Shown here piece after piece: positions 8,971-17,256 of a DNA stretch of 64,000 bases. Source of the stretch: an uncultured bacterium. Lineage in GTDB: Bacteria > Patescibacteriota > Minisyncoccia > Phycocordibacterales > UBA11359. A model generated the notes under the pieces. It was not told the DNA's origin, made no database searches, and saw only the letters and a program-made list of their open reading frames with translations. Within the stretch, counting starts at the first letter, position 1; every line of letters starts with the position of its first letter. The position numbers and the translations under genes are program-made. The stretch is taken from contig CAIKZC010000010.1 in assembly GCA_903831815.1 (NCBI GenBank), forward strand, positions 14,914 to 78,913. The letters run 5' to 3'.

Positions 8971-9045
8971 GGCTCTATCGTCTAACGGTTAGGACACGGC
9001 CTTTTCAAGGCTGGAATCGGGGTTCGATTCCCCGTAGAGTCACCA
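8971..9045 (+). tRNA. tRNA-Glu (anticodon TTC), CCA encoded
   Basis: GGCTCTA acceptor, anticodon stem CGGCC/GGCTG with loop TTTTCAA, T-arm CGGGG-TTCGATT-CCCCG, ACCA. Confidence 0.8.
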
Positions 9046-10673
9046 GTTAACTTTTTACGTCTCAAAAGGGCTTCAAAACCGTCTTTTCCCTTGAAATCTA
9101 CTAGCTTTTTGTTGTTAAAGGTAAGTTCGGTAAACATCATTGCTGCAATATCCCTTTTTTCATTATCAAGAGCGAATTTATAGTACAGGCTCGCACGTTT
9201 GATGAGTTCGGAAAAAGTTGTTACGTATTTGAGCATTTCTTGTGCGGCTTCGCCGTATGCTCCGGCTTTCTGTCTGATCTCATTTAGTTGTCCCATCAGC
9301 CTGTTCTCCTCGGTTTTGGCATCTTCAATGCTCATTGAGTTCGTCCTTAGAAGGGTAATACGATTTTTAGTTAGATAATCCAGATCCGCATAGACTCGCT
9401 TCTCTTGATTGTGAAGATCGTCGAGCTCTTTGTTGCGTTTTATGGTAATCGCATCTATACCTGAGCGTGCTTTGACCTCAAGTTCTCGCAATTCTTCATC
9501 ATCGAAATGCATGCGGTCCATTAGCGACTGTATACTCGCGTGGATATCGCTCTCTTTTAGATTTCTATCTGGGTTATTGCACGTTGCAGCACATCGCAGT
9601 CGATAGTAGCCGATACCCTTTCTTATATAATGACAATATGCACGGCCGCAAGTGCATCGAATCAGTTTTCTGTAAGTTGCGAACTTTTTATTGACGTAAT
9701 ATACCGATACACAACGCGCCTTCAGAACCTCTTGAACCTTATTAAAGAGACTAGTATCTATGAGTGGTTGATGCGCGGTTGAGATTATGAAGCCCTCTTT
9801 TGTTCTGTTCTGGCCTATATAAAATGGGTTAGTTAATATGTGCTCGATCGTTTTGTGTGTCACAGGTCTTGAAATCTTAGGCATCGTTTCGAGTTCTATA
9901 TTGGATAAAATCTGGTCCTCTGTTCTTTTGCCGCGAGAAGGTTTTGTCGTCAGCCCTTGTTCGTTGGCCCATTTACTCAACTCGAGTACACTCCAATCGC
10001 CTGTGGCGTACAATTCAAATATACGCTTTACAATAGGTGCTCGTACTGGGTCTATTGGTTTGTCACCTGATCCATTATCGAGATAGCCGGTAGGAGAGCA
10101 GTTAATGAACTTGCCCTCGGCTCGTAATTTTCTGTTTGTGTTTCTTACTTTTTCACTGATAACTCTAGAGTAGTGGGTAGAGAACATGCCATCGATGTCC
10201 ATGTGTAAGTCACCGGAGCTACTTTTTTCGTAAGTTGTTTCGGAAAATCTAATGTCGCAACCCAGCTTAAGTAACTTTTTGATGATTACGTCATCTTGCC
10301 CGTTGCGACTCGCTCGGTCCCAACATAGGAATATGGCCCCTTTTATTTCTTTATTCTTGAGCATTCCAACAAGTCGCAGAAACTTTGGTCTTTCGATTTT
10401 ATATTGGACAGTGCCGTTCGGCATAATTTCAAAACATTCATCTTCCTTGAAACCGGAATGTCTTTCATTGATAATCCCAGCATTGCAGAAGTTTGGTATT
10501 GTCAGATCGGCTATATTTAATTTTTCTCTTTTTGCGAATCGTAAGTTTGCACCCCTCTGATATTCCAAAGAATTTTTTTGGTTGTCGGCGTCATCTGTAC
10601 TCTTACGGTCGTACACGATGTGCATGTCCCTGAAAGGACTTGATGTTTGTTTTATCTGGTTCTGATTTTTCAT
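8982..10673 (-). CDS. Large serine recombinase/integrase (563 aa); 3' end reads through tRNA-Glu on the opposite strand
   Basis: N-terminal resolvase catalytic domain with YDRKST catalytic-serine context; recombinase domain, Cys-rich zinc-ribbon region (CTCGRAYCH...C) and coiled coil; last ~21 codons are the antisense of the tRNA. Confidence 0.75.
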   Translation of the reverse strand: MKNQNQIKQTSSPFRDMHIVYDRKSTDDADNQKNSLEYQRGANLRFAKREKLNIADLTIPNFCNAGIINERHSGFKEDECFEIMPNGTVQYKIERPKFLRLVGMLKNKEIKGAIFLCWDRASRNGQDDVIIKKLLKLGCDIRFSETTYEKSSSGDLHMDIDGMFSTHYSRVISEKVRNTNRKLRAEGKFINCSPTGYLDNGSGDKPIDPVRAPIVKRIFELYATGDWSVLELSKWANEQGLTTKPSRGKRTEDQILSNIELETMPKISRPVTHKTIEHILTNPFYIGQNRTKEGFIISTAHQPLIDTSLFNKVQEVLKARCVSVYYVNKKFATYRKLIRCTCGRAYCHYIRKGIGYYRLRCAATCNNPDRNLKESDIHASIQSLMDRMHFDDEELRELEVKARSGIDAITIKRNKELDDLHNQEKRVYADLDYLTKNRITLLRTNSMSIEDAKTEENRLMGQLNEIRQKAGAYGEAAQEMLKYVTTFSELIKRASLYYKFALDNEKRDIAAMMFTELTFNNKKLVDFKGKDGFEALLRRKKLTGDSTGNRTPIPALKRPCPNR

Positions 10674-10687
10674 GAATTAGTCGCTAT

Positions 10688-10879
10688 TTACATATTACCG
10701 CATCTCTGGTTTGTTTGTAAGCGCGGTGGCTCGATAATTTGATCATCCTTAATTATGTAGCCTTCTCTCACTAAGCGCATGTGAATTCTCTTTAGTGCGA
10801 CGCCAAGAGCAGTAAGAGCATTGATCTCCATCTCATTGAATTTTTGGTTTTCAGAATTGGGTGTTGATTGTTCCTTCAC
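10688..10879 (-). CDS. Hypothetical small protein
   Basis: 63-aa ORF immediately upstream of and co-oriented with the serine recombinase; no family recognisable (an excisionase/RDF role would be pure speculation). Confidence 0.3.
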   Translation of the reverse strand: MKEQSTPNSENQKFNEMEINALTALGVALKRIHMRLVREGYIIKDDQIIEPPRLQTNQRCGNM

Positions 10880-11022
10880 CCTGTTATCCTATACCCGACA
10901 TTTTTATAGAAATGACTATTTTATATGGTCGAATCTGTCATCAATAAACCAGTGAGCAGGCTAAGGAGAGATTGGCCGGAAGTTCACCTTTTTCTAGTGA
11001 GTATTACTCTTTGTTGAGCTTT

Positions 11023-11140
11023 CATACACCTCATACACTATTGTAATTTAGTCCTTTTTTTAAGGGTATTTTGAGTGTATGTTCAAGTGTATGAGAATTT
11101 GTTGTGTATGATGGACATACAGAGGAGATGCTCATACACA
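11023..11140. repeat. Iteron-like array: about 7 copies of heptamer CATACAC/GTGTATG in both orientations
   Basis: tcatacacctcatacac ... gagtgtatgttcaagtgtatgagaatttgttgtgtatgatgg ... ctcatacacac within ~120 bp of non-coding DNA. Confidence 0.6.
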
Positions 11141-11157: not shown

Positions 11158-12588
11158 TTAAGCCATAATCGCAGGGTCTTTTTTATCAGTGAAGGTTGGT
11201 GTAGGCACGATCTCAGTTTTGTTATCAAAGTATCCGCGGTAAACTTTTTCAACCTGTTCTTTTTTGAAAAGATACCGTTCGCCTTTGTTGTCTCTAGGCA
11301 ATTTTTCAGATGATAGATTGAATTTGTGAATAATTTTTCCGACCTGTGCGGATTGTTGCTTTGCCGATTCGGTGTTATCGAAATACATTTCATTTATGCC
11401 GCTTGCAATTTCCTTTGGCCTTAGGACCATGGAATCGATGTTAGTCAGGTTTTCCATCACTTTTTCTATGATCATTCGTTCTAAATCAGATACTTGGTAT
11501 TCGGCAAAATTGTATTGTGATAGGAATTGCTGCTTAGCATTTTGTTGTTCTGTTTCAGGGATATTGAGAACGGAAAACATGACCTCAAAGGGTATCCATA
11601 ACTCAAGTTGTCGGCCTACGAGTTCCGGTTTTTCTTGGTGTTTGTAAGCAGTTTTTGTTTGGTCATATTTAATTTGGGCAAAATTGAAATTGGAGATGAG
11701 TAATTTATATATGTCATTTCGTACGCCTTTCCAAATAGCATTTTCTTCGTCGAGTGGTTTATATATTTTGCTGCTTCTGATGAGTGAAATAATGAGACAC
11801 CGGTCGCGTAGGTCTTCAGGCAGTTGGTTGATCGAGGCAAAGGCTTTTGGCGTATATGCCTGAAATTCTTGTAGGTTCCAGTTCTTACCTTTATCAGCCA
11901 CCATCTTGCGTATATCGCCGCCGCCGCGTTTGTATGAGTCGGTTAAAATATCCAGAAGGTCATCCATGTTTGGTCTGTGTAAGGCATCAGCTTGATCCAT
12001 AAGATACGTGCCTCTCAACGCGTCGACGGTATCTCGCAATGCCGGTAGACTTGCACGAGCCTTGGTGGCGTTAAAACATATCTGGTTTAGGAAACCTAGA
12101 CACTGAGATTTCCCTGAACCTTTAGGGGCTTTTATATGTAGATATGGATACGCGGAGAATATAGGGAAAAAGTATGTACCAATGGCCCATGTGCACATTA
12201 ACGTTGCGTCCGCATCTTCTATGTCCATGTGCTGTTTCAATGCATCTTTAATGTCGGTGTACAGGTGTTGGGAGTTTATTTTATGCGCTGGCGATAGCCA
12301 ATTTTCGCGAAAGTCATCCAGATTTTTTCTGTCTAGCCTCTGAGAGAATTTTGCCAGTTTCCTTTTTTTGACGTCTATGTAATAGGTTTTGCCACTGATC
12401 ACGAATGACGGCTCTTTGGTAATTTGGAATTGACCCTCCGTAGTAGCAACTATGAATATCTCACTTTCTTTATCAATTTTAGGTTTTACTCTAAATCCAA
12501 GCACCAAGACGCCGTTTTTAATATCGAGAGATGGATGGAATGCTGGCTCATCAAAATAGTCTATATCCTGCGTTTTATTTTTGTCCAT
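11158..12588 (-). CDS. P-loop NTPase of phage/plasmid replication type (VirE/DUF3987-like, primase-associated helicase-like)
   Basis: Walker A-like KAPKGSGKSQ; 476 aa; sits beside the iteron array and a serine recombinase. Confidence 0.4.
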   Translation of the reverse strand: MDKNKTQDIDYFDEPAFHPSLDIKNGVLVLGFRVKPKIDKESEIFIVATTEGQFQITKEPSFVISGKTYYIDVKKRKLAKFSQRLDRKNLDDFRENWLSPAHKINSQHLYTDIKDALKQHMDIEDADATLMCTWAIGTYFFPIFSAYPYLHIKAPKGSGKSQCLGFLNQICFNATKARASLPALRDTVDALRGTYLMDQADALHRPNMDDLLDILTDSYKRGGGDIRKMVADKGKNWNLQEFQAYTPKAFASINQLPEDLRDRCLIISLIRSSKIYKPLDEENAIWKGVRNDIYKLLISNFNFAQIKYDQTKTAYKHQEKPELVGRQLELWIPFEVMFSVLNIPETEQQNAKQQFLSQYNFAEYQVSDLERMIIEKVMENLTNIDSMVLRPKEIASGINEMYFDNTESAKQQSAQVGKIIHKFNLSSEKLPRDNKGERYLFKKEQVEKVYRGYFDNKTEIVPTPTFTDKKDPAIMA

Positions 12589-12615: not shown

Positions 12616-12933
12616 TTAATCTTTCAGCCTGTCTAGTAATTCACGTCTGGCTTGCTCGTAAACGTGAACGTTTACTAACATATCCGGGTTAGCTCGGTCT
12701 CCGAATTTATAAATATCAACTAGGCGCTTCAGTTGGCTATTGTTCACAAACAAAAACTCCTTTTTATTTGGGTTCTCGGTTGCGTCGATTCCTGTGATCG
12801 GTTGGCCTTTGGCTACTAAGAAGCAGGCGAGCGTGAAAGAGCTCTGCCTATATGTTTTATTTGTGTTGTGCATGTCTATTTTTATATAAGAAAATAAGAC
12901 TATTAATAGCCTTATAATATCTGCACTCTCCAT
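12616..12933 (-). CDS. Hypothetical protein
   Basis: 105-aa ORF, no recognisable family. Confidence 0.3.
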   Translation of the reverse strand: MESADIIRLLIVLFSYIKIDMHNTNKTYRQSSFTLACFLVAKGQPITGIDATENPNKKEFLFVNNSQLKRLVDIYKFGDRANPDMLVNVHVYEQARRELLDRLKD

Positions 12934-12948
12934 ATGAAAATGACAGTT

Positions 12949-13722
12949 TTATAGTGGGGGATTTGTCATCTTGTATTTTTCTCTAAACCTCTTTCTTATT
13001 GTTCGTAATTCGTTCACTCTTTTTCTGTCTCTCGCTTCATCATCATTCGTTGCACTTTCCCAGATTTGACCAACTCGATCTAGATCGATAGCGCTATCAT
13101 CTTGTATTTTACCGTCTTCTCCGCGAGTATCATATACTATTCCTTTTGTTGCCCGTATCTCTATGTCTTTCAACGCGATAGATAGGTTATTCATCGAAGC
13201 CTTTGAAAAATTCTGCCTCTTGAAATTCGGCCATAACTTTTTTTGCTGTTTTTTTATCCAGAACCAGGCTTCCGCTATATCATCAACAGAGGTGTCTGGA
13301 TTCAAGGTTAATACAAGCCTCCGTTTCTCCTTTTTGTTTTTCTCGGCTTTTATATATAAATTGTAAATTGGCGGACTGAACCACCAGCTGATTATGAAAT
13401 CTGTTATAGTATTGAACCACTCCTGTCCCAAATCATTTTTATCTAAAAACTCATCAATATCGTTACTTAGTGCGATGGCTTTTTGAGCACTCAGTGAATT
13501 TATAAATGCTGTCCTTTTTGAATAAGCGATCGCATTTTTTCTTTTTACCTCATCATAACTATCACTATCAAAAAACCATCCCATGGGCTTTTTGAGGTGT
13601 TCAGATTTCCACTTGTCTACCAAACCAGTGATTGAGTCACTGAATTTTTTATTGGTATACAATGAGTCCAAGAAAATGAATGAATTCTTGAACAGATTTC
13701 TGTATGTATCTGATTTTTTCAT
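12949..13722 (-). CDS. Hypothetical protein
   Basis: 257-aa ORF, Lys/Trp-rich, no recognisable family. Confidence 0.35.
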   Translation of the reverse strand: MKKSDTYRNLFKNSFIFLDSLYTNKKFSDSITGLVDKWKSEHLKKPMGWFFDSDSYDEVKRKNAIAYSKRTAFINSLSAQKAIALSNDIDEFLDKNDLGQEWFNTITDFIISWWFSPPIYNLYIKAEKNKKEKRRLVLTLNPDTSVDDIAEAWFWIKKQQKKLWPNFKRQNFSKASMNNLSIALKDIEIRATKGIVYDTRGEDGKIQDDSAIDLDRVGQIWESATNDDEARDRKRVNELRTIRKRFREKYKMTNPPL

Positions 13723-13946: not shown

Positions 13947-14444
13947 TTAACTAGTCAGTTCATCGATATTACTAGGTAACGTAGTCGTGCCGCAATTCTT
14001 GTCATTAAGAATGTTAGCTAAAAAACCAGAGGCTACATCGTCATTTGGGGCTCTCAGAAGTACATGGTAAAAAGCCGCACCTGCGTCAGCACAATTACCA
14101 AGACTATAAAGTGCGAATCCTCTGTGATTCCAAAAGTCTATATCGTTCCAAATTAAATCTTTGTGATTTTTGATACCATAGTCTGTCGCATTAACGACAA
14201 ATTGATAATCTTTATTTTGATTTCCCATAAATAAAAAACTATCACGGTCTGCGGATGATAGTGCGTACAAGTCCGGAGTAGTTGATGTGCTTTCTTGGGT
14301 TATGCTTACGGTTGTACTCGTAGAAGTAGCGCTTGAACTGGATTCCGTTCTTTGTGCTGGTTTTGAATGATAGAAAAGTACAACTAAAACAACAACGAGT
14401 CCTAATGCTATGATGCCGATAATTATTTTATTGTTGTTTTTCAC
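13947..14444 (-). CDS. Membrane-anchored extracellular protein (N-terminal TM, Ser/Thr-rich linker)
   Basis: N-terminal hydrophobic anchor IIIGIIALGLVVVLVVLF, then an S/T-rich stretch, then a globular domain with conserved Cys. Confidence 0.45.
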   Translation of the reverse strand: MKNNNKIIIGIIALGLVVVLVVLFYHSKPAQRTESSSSATSTSTTVSITQESTSTTPDLYALSSADRDSFLFMGNQNKDYQFVVNATDYGIKNHKDLIWNDIDFWNHRGFALYSLGNCADAGAAFYHVLLRAPNDDVASGFLANILNDKNCGTTTLPSNIDELTS

Positions 14445-14549
14445 TTTATTTTATTTTCCTTAACAGTATCTCGCTTAATGAGGAAATAGTCTATTGAGTA
14501 TTCGTAATGATATTTTCAATTAATCTTACAATGCGACTATTCATAGAGG

Positions 14550-15086
14550 CTATTGTGTCCAATCATCTTTCATCACTTTACTAATATAGATCATTGCAGA
14601 ATCGTAGTTAGATATAGAGGGGTTATACATAGGCCAAGTGTCATTTTTGTCGACTGGACCATCTATATTTATCCACCCCGTGTTGCCTTTATCTTTATCT
14701 TCAAATGCATAAGCTAATTCATCTTTTGTTTGGCCGTCATATAGAAATCTTGAGTAACTTCCTTTTGCCTCTAACGACCCCATATCACTAAACTCTACAT
14801 AACAGCGGTTCGTTGCTGGGTTATAATGCGAACTTTGGAGTCGAGAGTATCGGTAGTTGCCGCTTGGTTTGCTATCTGAGATTTTTTGACCAAGAGTAGC
14901 ACATTCTGATCGTAAATTGAATACCTCCGTAGCTGTGGGTAAATTATATACTTTTGTTTGCAAATCTAGATTTTGTTTGTTTACTTTACCTGATTCATTT
15001 TGAGTTTTGATAACGACAATAAGCAGAGCTAGGATGATAATGCCTAGCACCGACTCAAACCAATGTTCTTTGATTAATTTTTTCAT
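14550..15086 (-). CDS. Membrane-anchored extracellular protein
   Basis: N-terminal TM VLGIIILALLIVVI; 178 aa. Confidence 0.45.
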   Translation of the reverse strand: MKKLIKEHWFESVLGIIILALLIVVIKTQNESGKVNKQNLDLQTKVYNLPTATEVFNLRSECATLGQKISDSKPSGNYRYSRLQSSHYNPATNRCYVEFSDMGSLEAKGSYSRFLYDGQTKDELAYAFEDKDKGNTGWINIDGPVDKNDTWPMYNPSISNYDSAMIYISKVMKDDWTQ

Positions 15087-15091
15087 GCCAT

Positions 15092-15922
15092 TTAATTATT
15101 ACAACCCCCAGATAACGATAAGCGGTCGTAAAAACTAACCTGATTACAGTTAGGCCGCATCTGTTGAAGTTGTTGTTGAAATAGTTGTTGCTGTCGCTGT
15201 GCTTCTTGTTGTTGTTTCATTTGATCTAATGAACTCTGTACTTGCTGGAGCTGTTGCTGCTGTTGTTGCTGGAGAAGAATTGTTGCGTTTTGAGAAGATT
15301 GCTCAGCGTAGTTTGTGGTGTTATATGTTGGGAGAAAGATAGGAGCTGATTGTTGTCCAGTGTTCTGGCAAGATGTCCTAGTGCTGTTCCACATGTAGCC
15401 ACTTTTACAGAAACAAACAGGGCCACCACTTTCGTTTTTATTGCCAGAATCTACACTATTTTGGCCATACGAATCTTCGCATATTTGTTGATTTGTTTTT
15501 GGCACTGCTTGTGGCGGAGTCGGTTCGATAATTACGGTCGTCCCGTTTGGAAAAGTTGCGCAGTTACTTTCCAGTGTCGCTCCATTTGGACAGAGTGGAA
15601 CTGAGGCTGGTGCAGGTGTCGAAACTGGAACGGAAGTAAGATCAGGAGTAATTACTGTGTTAGAAACTTGTTTTTTAATAGCAGGTTTATTTTTTATTGT
15701 TGAAGTAGCAGTAGATGTTGCTGTATGCGTTTGTATAGTTACAGTTGTAGTACTTACAGAAGTGGTGGTTGTGGAAATATCTATCGGAGTAAATACGGTT
15801 TGAGGTTTAACTACGTTTGACCCAAACCATGTGAATGGATTCCACCAGGAGGCCATGGCTACGGAGGGAGTAACTACTGCTAGTACAATAATCGCAATAA
15901 ATACTTTGTTTAATTTCTGCAT
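15092..15922 (-). CDS. Secreted Thr-rich/Gln-rich protein with Cys-containing middle domain
   Basis: Signal peptide MQKLNKVFIAIIVLAVVTPSVAMA; poly-Thr linker; C-terminal poly-Q/coiled-coil QQQQQQQLQQ. Confidence 0.5.
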   Translation of the reverse strand: MQKLNKVFIAIIVLAVVTPSVAMASWWNPFTWFGSNVVKPQTVFTPIDISTTTTSVSTTTVTIQTHTATSTATSTIKNKPAIKKQVSNTVITPDLTSVPVSTPAPASVPLCPNGATLESNCATFPNGTTVIIEPTPPQAVPKTNQQICEDSYGQNSVDSGNKNESGGPVCFCKSGYMWNSTRTSCQNTGQQSAPIFLPTYNTTNYAEQSSQNATILLQQQQQQQLQQVQSSLDQMKQQQEAQRQQQLFQQQLQQMRPNCNQVSFYDRLSLSGGCNN

Positions 15923-16374: not shown

Positions 16375-17256
16375 ATGAAGATGATTATAGCGGTATTAGT
16401 TGTGATGTTTGTTTGTGCTGGCAACGTAATGGCTGGGGCATGGACCACCATTAACATACCTGGCGGCGGCACAAACTTGTTTGGGGTCAGTGGAAATAAC
16501 ATGGTTGGTAGTTCCTCTCGAGGTGGTTCATTCTACGATGGAACAAGCTGGGCTACCATTAACTATCCTGGGGCATCGAGTGCGGTCCCGTACGCGATCA
16601 GTGGCAACACTATCGTGGGTGAATACCGCGGAGGTACCCACAGTGGTCCTGGTAAGCAGGGCTATGGTTTCATCTATGACGGAACAAATTGGACCACCGT
16701 GGATGCCCCTGGACCAAACTACACAATTTTGTGCGGTATTTCTGGGAACAACATTGTTGGTCAGTACACCGATGCCTCTGACAACAATCACGGTTATTTC
16801 TACAATGGAACAAGTTGGGCGACCCTGGACTATCCTGGGGCAGGCGCAACATACCTACAAGGCATTTCCGGCACAAACATCGTTGGTTGGGAAGAAGGTG
16901 CTCCTGATGGTGACAACGCCTTTCTGTATGATGGAACGACGTGGAAAACTCTTGATATGCCCGGGGTGAATAGCTGGAGCATAGTTCCACGTGGCATTGA
17001 CGGCAGCAACATCGTTGGTTACTACAGCGCTCCAGACGCCACGCATGGTTTTCTCTACGACGGGACGACCTGGACCACACTTGATTACCCTGGGGCATTG
17101 GATACGATGGTGTATGGCATATCCGGTGGCGACATCGTTGGTGAGTATACTGACAACTCGGGGAACTATGGGTTTCTCTATACTGTTCCCGAACCAGCAA
17201 CACTTGGGCTGCTCAGTTTCGGTTTTCTGGCTCTGGTGCGCAGGCGACGGCGCTGA
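16375..17256 (+). CDS. Secreted repeat protein with a C-terminal PEP-CTERM sorting signal
   Basis: Signal peptide; about 7 repeats of a ~30-aa motif (Y/F)DGT(S/T)W(A/T)T(I/L)(D/N)YPGA...GISG.NIVG; C-terminus VPEPATLGLLSFGFLALVRRRRR-stop is a textbook PEP-CTERM (PEP, TM helix, Arg cluster); GC markedly above its surroundings. Confidence 0.7.
   Translation: MKMIIAVLVVMFVCAGNVMAGAWTTINIPGGGTNLFGVSGNNMVGSSSRGGSFYDGTSWATINYPGASSAVPYAISGNTIVGEYRGGTHSGPGKQGYGFIYDGTNWTTVDAPGPNYTILCGISGNNIVGQYTDASDNNHGYFYNGTSWATLDYPGAGATYLQGISGTNIVGWEEGAPDGDNAFLYDGTTWKTLDMPGVNSWSIVPRGIDGSNIVGYYSAPDATHGFLYDGTTWTTLDYPGALDTMVYGISGGDIVGEYTDNSGNYGFLYTVPEPATLGLLSFGFLALVRRRRR

Follow-up and report, generated by a model that had tools for sequence, protein, structure and literature searches.

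A conserved array of 8-bp repeats downstream of a putative initiator-helicase gene, a probable replication origin of an integrated element in Patescibacteria

The locus and its neighbours

The window, i.e. the whole 64-kb stretch of DNA that was analysed, contains a set of conserved modules spanning ~5 kb. The genes described by the initial annotation on either side of a short repeat array are all present and all lie on the - strand, namely those for a large serine integrase, a small ORF and a 476-aa protein with a Walker A motif. The integrase gene (8982-10673, -; 563 aa) encodes a protein with Resolvase and Recombinase domains (PF00239, E 2.4e-12; PF07508, E 8.7e-17), that is, a large serine recombinase, which also matches PHROG 95 (integrase) with an E-value of 7.5e-52. 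The YDRKST motif is visible in its N-terminal translation, a part that lies outside the profile alignment. Just upstream of the integrase gene is orf63 (10688-10879, -; 63 aa), which was found only with this integrase subtype (loci L027, L058 and L096) and is possibly a directionality or regulatory factor. The 476-aa gene (11158-12588, -), hereafter rep, would encode an initiator-helicase. It is immediately preceded by a gene for a 105-aa DUF5659 protein (12616-12933, -). A small gene (~85-105 aa) is conserved in this place in at least 41 related loci; in the window, as in other assemblies of this genome, it encodes a DUF5659 protein, and by analogy with orfA-repAM in pMEA300 it may be co-transcribed with rep. 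The module has no primase gene of its own, and no partition ATPase or terminase gene was found in it. Farther upstream is a 257-aa ORF (12949-13722) for which none of the related loci has a homologue. The products of three consecutive genes beside the element (13947-15922, -) have hydrophobic segments at the N-terminus as well as Ser/Thr-rich or Gln-rich tracts; a PEP-CTERM protein gene (16375-17256, +) follows.

A tRNA-Glu(ttc) gene (8971-9045, +) lies antisense to the integrase gene and overlaps its last ~20 codons; it probably served as the integration target and would form the left end of the element. The same arrangement recurs in related elements, where the 3′ end of the integrase gene overlaps an opposite-strand gene for tRNA-Val, Ala, Asp, Gly, Ser, Asn or His (loci L001, L004, L005, L008, L016, L029, L037, L041, L058, L059, L085 and L087). 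Because integrase genes overlap tRNA genes in antisense both in the window and in related loci, tRNA genes appear to be the chromosomal sites at which the elements are integrated. The large serine integrases may accordingly form a clade that targets tRNA genes, with the attP site within the end of the int gene. Direct repeats of tRNA fragments, which would mark the far end of the element, were found neither in the window nor in 14 loci that were searched. Just past the integrase of one related element (L010), ARAGORN reports two tandem tRNA-like genes (11385-11466 and 11488-11569) with a four-base anticodon, gacg, and no amino acid.

The repeat array, its conservation and its partner gene

The whole array is held in the 278-nt intergenic gap between the 476-aa gene and the 63-aa ORF. 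Six exact copies of the heptamer CATACAC are found at 11023-11139 when both strands are counted. Those on the + strand start at 11023, 11032 and 11133, and the - strand copies at 11075, 11087 and 11104; one further, degenerate copy (CATACAG) is located at 11116-11122 (+). The initial annotation had counted about seven copies, which is right because of this degenerate one, and it had also placed and oriented the repeats correctly, including a direct tandem pair. Five of the exact copies extend to the 8-mer TCATACAC, whereas the sixth reads ACATACAC. Across the 64-kb window CATACAC is present 11 times on the two strands, compared to a mean of 4.25 ± 2.04 in dinucleotide shuffles, and 11 or more copies were seen in none of 100 shuffles. 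When the 278-nt gap alone was shuffled, any 7-mer reached six or more copies in 5 of 5000 dinucleotide shuffles (~0.001). The heptamer, whose frequency had been named as a point on which an origin reading could fail, is thus far above expectation, and the repeated 8-base motif is real.

The array is described in the direction of the genes, all of which are on the - strand, starting from the end of rep. In this direction, the stop codon (11158) is followed by two reverse copies, three forward copies, a 36-nt spacer and a tandem pair of reverse copies. Iteron 1 (TCATACAC; 11132-11139, +) starts 19 nt past the stop and is reverse relative to rep, as is iteron 2 (11115-11122, +), which has the degenerate sequence ACATACAG and is part of an inverted repeat. 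Iterons 3 (11104-11111, -) and 4 (11087-11094, -), both TCATACAC, and iteron 5 (ACATACAC; 11075-11082, -) are forward, i.e. in the orientation of the rep coding sequence. Together, the blocks of reverse and forward copies form an imperfect 53-bp dyad at 11087-11139. The spacer (11039-11074), which is 78% A+T and separates the oppositely oriented iteron sets, is a candidate DNA-unwinding region. Beyond it, iterons 6 (11031-11038, +) and 7 (11022-11029, +), again TCATACAC and reverse, make up the tandem pair at 11022-11038 with a spacing of 9 bp. Repeat spacing in the array, which uses both orientations, is 9-17 bp.

Whether homologous elements keep such an array at the same position had been proposed as a check, and the outcome was strongly positive. 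We fetched 105 related loci, 63 of which, from other Patescibacteria, were non-redundant and had sufficient downstream sequence. At least four TACAY cores were present within 160 nt past the rep stop in 55 of the 63 loci, and the core density was 3.5 per 100 nt in this 160-nt stretch versus 0.28 elsewhere in the same loci. In 49 of the 63, forward copies are followed by the spacer and the tandem reverse pair, in the order seen in the window. The first copy lies at a median of 11 nt from the stop, compared to 19 nt in the window, and the spacer has a median length of 38 nt (mostly 34-40 nt), so that the iterons flanking it are ~41-44 bp apart, start to start. Enrichment of the spacer in A+T is modest family-wide (0.67 versus 0.61 for the loci), and is absent in the G+C-richer lineages L067-L076. 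While the layout is constant, the motif itself varies by lineage, with TCATACAC, TATACAC, CATACAT, TCCTACAC, TCTTACAC, CACTTCAC and CTCTTCAC as variants; the TACAC core is retained and one motif position changes. Because the motif shifts by lineage while the layout is kept, the array, judged from these comparisons, seems to behave as a protein-recognition site co-evolving with its binder, unlike a chance repeat. Outside the phylum, a relative of the 476-aa gene in Desulfobacterota (L024) is followed within ~180 nt by six GACACG repeats in both orientations with a very A+T-rich centre; the layout of rep followed by iterons therefore crosses phyla.

A terminal-overlap check revealed no circular contig among the 105 related loci. 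Four further contigs with an identical Rep (L107-L110) come from other public assemblies of this genome; they show 100% identity and provide no additional context. These contigs break at or beside the array (11131 and 11156), and two assemblies from different samples both stop at 10781, inside orf63; these shared contig ends hint at repeat-induced breaks or at strain-level variation of the integrase module.

The initial annotation had left open whether the repeats were origin iterons or recombinase binding sites. A large serine integrase is encoded downstream in most loci of sufficient length, and its identity to the window integrase ranges over 16-45%, compared to 39-62% for Rep; across loci the two identities are uncorrelated (r = 0.06). 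With crude one-letter motif classes, neither Rep nor integrase identity was informative (AUC ~0.45-0.49 throughout), and the comparison was then restricted to well-defined arrays. For these, a shared iteron class was predicted by Rep identity (AUC 0.82, or 0.85 in the integrase-bearing subset) but not by integrase identity (AUC 0.44), and the same motif occurs beside integrases that are only 16-25% identical. In addition, the genes between the array and the integrase differ between loci, and the 63-aa ORF travels with the integrase subtype and not with the array. Since the motif class tracks Rep rather than the integrase while the intervening genes vary, the array belongs to the rep module. 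Of the two functions initially proposed, origin iterons are consequently the better fit, and recombinase sites are not favoured. All domains of Rep track the motif class to about the same degree, an outcome expected from phylogeny alone, so that specificity is not attributable to the C-terminal winged helix in particular. Mutual information between iteron class and Rep residues has its top positions in all domains; residues 404 and 409, which adjoin the winged-helix helix 409-422, rank high, but this signal is confounded by phylogeny and is therefore left out as evidence for the binder.

The 476-aa protein and its relatives

The structure of Rep was predicted with high confidence scores from a 102-sequence alignment (pLDDT 91.3, pTM 0.83); this model supersedes an earlier AF2 model from 24 sequences, in which the ATPase core was poor (pLDDT 71). 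It comprises a beta-rich N-terminal domain, an AAA+ alpha/beta ATPase core with the Walker A motif KAPKGSGKSQ at residues 153-162, and a C-terminal winged helix at residues ~368-454. As a predicted fold, it resembles MCM helicases, the SCCmec protein Cch and the Rep of staphylococcal pathogenicity islands (SaPIs). The best matches in a viral structure library were Toprim-primase fusions (E 2e-21); proteins with the names helicase, replication protein B, DUF927 and Prim-Pol came next. The protein had initially been called DUF3987/VirE-like. This assignment was dropped because no Pfam match was obtained, either for the window Rep (E<=0.01) or for 24 family members (E<=1), and proteins named VirE appeared only as low-ranking structural neighbours, 40th and 50th in the viral fold search. 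Likewise, Rep could be assigned to no PHROG family, and a tblastn search of a phage collection gave no match.

Profile comparison brought out a more distant relationship. The family profile aligned with a Streptomyces DUF3631 protein over residues 104-342 (hhalign probability 92.5%, E 4.9e-7), which supports Rep being remotely homologous to RepAM; the DUF3631 family is that of RepAM, which initiates replication in integrative elements of the pMEA300 type (PMC3218068). The window Rep itself has no match to the DUF3631 Pfam model (PF12307) at the gathering score, and a primase-fused relative (P0124) reaches 15 bits against a cut-off of 24.

A word-indexed search gave 353 relatives at E<=1e-3, none of them with a Pfam domain and the named ones being nearly all from Patescibacteria/CPR metagenomes, and an exhaustive profile search retrieved 12,033 cluster representatives at E<=1e-3 (558 at E<=1e-30). 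Many of the latter are 750-980 aa long, with the Rep-homologous part at the C-terminus. Primase-type N-terminal domains were identified in 8 of 10 long relatives scanned, and these were of several kinds: DnaG zinc ribbon plus Toprim, Prim-Pol with or without PriCT_1, BT4734-like_N plus PriCT_2, and DUF3854. The primases to which relatives are joined are of the DnaG, Prim-Pol or AEP type. One such primase-fused long protein, P0167, is a close relative of Rep (E 5e-168). Two relatives from Desulfobacterota, encoded at L024 (4657-7326) and L023 (4699-7263), share 25-28% identity with Rep and are fused to a complete DnaG-type primase. The Rep protein of the plasmid pXZ1 aligns with residues 109-383 at 27% identity (E 3e-10). 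It is recorded as a 1077-aa 'hypothetical protein' of a small archaeal plasmid from Sulfolobus islandicus (L106; NC_010365.1, 2684-5917), which also encodes an integrase, and its N-terminus is weakly RepB_primase-like. The repeated fusion of relatives to unrelated primase types is strong evidence, drawn from sequence comparison, that Rep would act at the replication fork. The initial annotation had regarded a non-replicative NTPase family as fatal to its proposal; the predicted MCM/Cch/SaPI-Rep-like fold, the remote homology to RepAM and the primase-fused relatives all place the protein on the replicative side.

Proposed origin function, alternatives and known systems

Taken together, these results suggest that the array is probably the replication origin of a small integrated mobile element in Patescibacteria (CPR), located just after the gene for its initiator-helicase. 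On the precedents of the SaPIs, RepAM and pRN1, we propose the following mechanism. The 476-aa gene, ending 19 nt from the array, would encode an MCM-like AAA+ initiator-helicase, Rep, whose C-terminal winged helix would recognise the 8-bp iterons TCATACAC. Rep subunits would bind on both sides of the 11039-11074 spacer and assemble into rings, and these assemblies would melt the A+T-rich spacer and unwind outward, with primers supplied by the host primase. As spacer length is near constant and the distance between flanking iterons correspondingly narrow, a geometric constraint between two Rep assemblies is suggested. Autonomous replication would begin once the element has been cut out as a circle by the serine integrase, as in SaPIs and actinomycete integrative elements.

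Lying between rep and the co-oriented orf63-integrase genes, the array might instead be chiefly a transcriptional operator that controls orf63-integrase, or that terminates or autoregulates rep, without origin function; a regulatory role of the RepAM sites beside xis was proposed for pMEA300 (PMC2440964). We consider this unlikely. The distance between the array and the rep stop is near constant whereas the identity of the next gene and the distance to it vary widely, and a promoter/terminator scan scored no sigma-70-like promoter or intrinsic terminator inside the array. An origin is also the better fit to the fixed ~38-nt spacer between opposed iteron sets, and to the recurrence of this layout downstream of primase-fused relatives in another phylum. 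Operator and origin roles are compatible and not mutually exclusive, and the position of the array upstream of the orf63-integrase genes makes an additional or alternative regulatory role possible.

Plasmid centromeres also show arrays of short repeats in both orientations, and the small gene kept upstream of rep, of the DUF5659 type in the window, provides a candidate for an alternative iteron binder. The repeats could then be a centromere-like, partition or packaging site bound by this or another protein of the element. Such a role is improbable, as the module lacks the partition ATPase or terminase gene, the array abuts rep and not the DUF5659 gene, and Rep has a winged helix of its own, as do the iteron-binding SaPI Reps.

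We attach just as little weight to the view that the array acts through nucleic-acid structure, either as a cruciform or hairpin origin (rolling-circle, pRN1 type) or as a 3′ hairpin of the rep mRNA. The single-stranded DNA of the region does fold into a more stable structure than shuffled sequences (-18.7 kcal/mol, z = -3.9), the pRN1 origin is a ~100-nt stem-loop downstream of rep (PMC4234260), the RepAM repeats are able to form a hairpin (PMC2440964), and iteron-iteron complementarity slightly exceeds that of a random control (0.41 versus 0.30). However, the pairing is mostly of iteron to iteron (0.58 inside iteron footprints), the tandem pair past the spacer has no dedicated partner, and there is no G+C-rich stem with a T-tract. 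Rfam returned only sub-threshold microRNA noise for the array region, and the Pfam scan found no HUH or rolling-circle nuclease domain in Rep. Finally, the 53-bp palindrome is about the size of a serine-integrase attP and the integrase gene is nearby, but an att- or res-like recombination or accessory site is highly improbable, the array being internal to the integrated element and unsplit at its ends, its motif class being independent of integrase identity and shared beside very divergent integrases, and the tRNA gene that serves as integration target being at the opposite end of the int gene.

The reading of the array as an origin has consequences beyond this locus. In searches of the literature we found no description of such an arrangement for this phylum and protein family. 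The rep gene and its ~120-bp array may tentatively be regarded as the cassette of an undescribed, widespread family of minimal integrative-replicative elements of Patescibacteria, with tRNA-targeting large serine integrases and with lineage iteron variants acting as specificity or incompatibility groups. If this is so, the initiator would represent a large unmodelled branch of MCM-like helicases, with ~12,000 cluster representatives; the Rep family is large, many of its members are fused to primases, and those scanned match no Pfam model. Should the cassette be capable of autonomous replication, CPR bacteria would have in it their first candidate replicon of the plasmid type. To our knowledge, there are no plasmid vectors for Patescibacteria, and for this reason a compact module of rep and a 120-bp origin is a practical vector candidate. 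At the least, a 'hypothetical protein' and an unannotated spacer have become a testable Rep-ori pair.

Classical theta-plasmid origins (Rep_3/RepA type) consist of tandem direct repeats of ~17-22 bp bound by a Rep made of winged helices only. This type was rejected for the array, the repeats of which are 8 bp long and in both orientations, and the putative AAA+ initiator of which has no Rep_3/RepA Pfam match. SCCmec elements encode Cch, an MCM-like helicase beside the Ccr serine recombinases, and the predicted Rep structure resembles it. The Pfam family of Cch is DUF927; Rep, without any Pfam match, thus has none to this family, and the accessory genes differ. In the text consulted on these helicases (PMC9371898), no defined iteron origin is described for Cch. 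Like the proposed element, tycheposons and PICI-like elements are small and integrative-replicative, but they differ in host phylum and Rep family.

Closer parallels are found where the origin lies just past the rep gene. Replication of pRN1 needs a ~100-nt element just downstream of rep (PMC4234260), and pXZ1 Rep, which like ORF904 belongs to the pRN1 family, is the protein matching residues 109-383. Unlike Rep, the proteins of this family are primase-helicase fusions of ~900-1080 aa, and their origin is a stem-loop rather than a set of iterons. RepAM, whose ATPase core appears remotely homologous to that of Rep, binds to several identical 8-bp repeats located at the 3′ end of the repAM gene; these are followed by the genes for excision and integration, and the elements integrate in tRNA genes (PMC2440964). 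In contrast to the array described here, the RepAM repeats are inside the coding sequence and have been discussed as a hairpin or rolling-circle-type origin, the elements are conjugative, and the window Rep scores below the DUF3631 model.

The arrangement is most like that of the SaPIs, whose origins have six to twelve short iterons directly downstream of rep around an AT-rich centre, with at least two iterons per side in opposite directions, and in which a self-loading helicase recognises the iterons through its C-terminal winged helix (PMC9371898). Here too the repeats are directly 3′ of rep, an A+T-rich centre is flanked by opposed iterons (three at 11075-11111, -, and two at 11022-11038, +), and the initiator is, by its predicted structure, an AAA+ protein with a C-terminal winged helix. 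The SaPI Reps and this Rep have no detectable sequence similarity. Moreover, the iterons here are 8 bp long and arranged asymmetrically: two to three reverse and three forward copies form a dyad block, after which come the spacer and the tandem pair. The element has a large serine recombinase as its integrase and no adjacent primase gene, lacks packaging and interference genes, and belongs to a different host phylum, Patescibacteria. Integrative elements with an iteron origin 3′ of the gene for an initiator-helicase are already known among staphylococcal islands and in actinomycetes. The present locus would extend to another phylum the rule, seen in SaPIs, pMEA300 and pRN1, that the origin lies just 3′ of the initiator-helicase gene, a rule that helps to annotate origins in metagenomic mobile elements.
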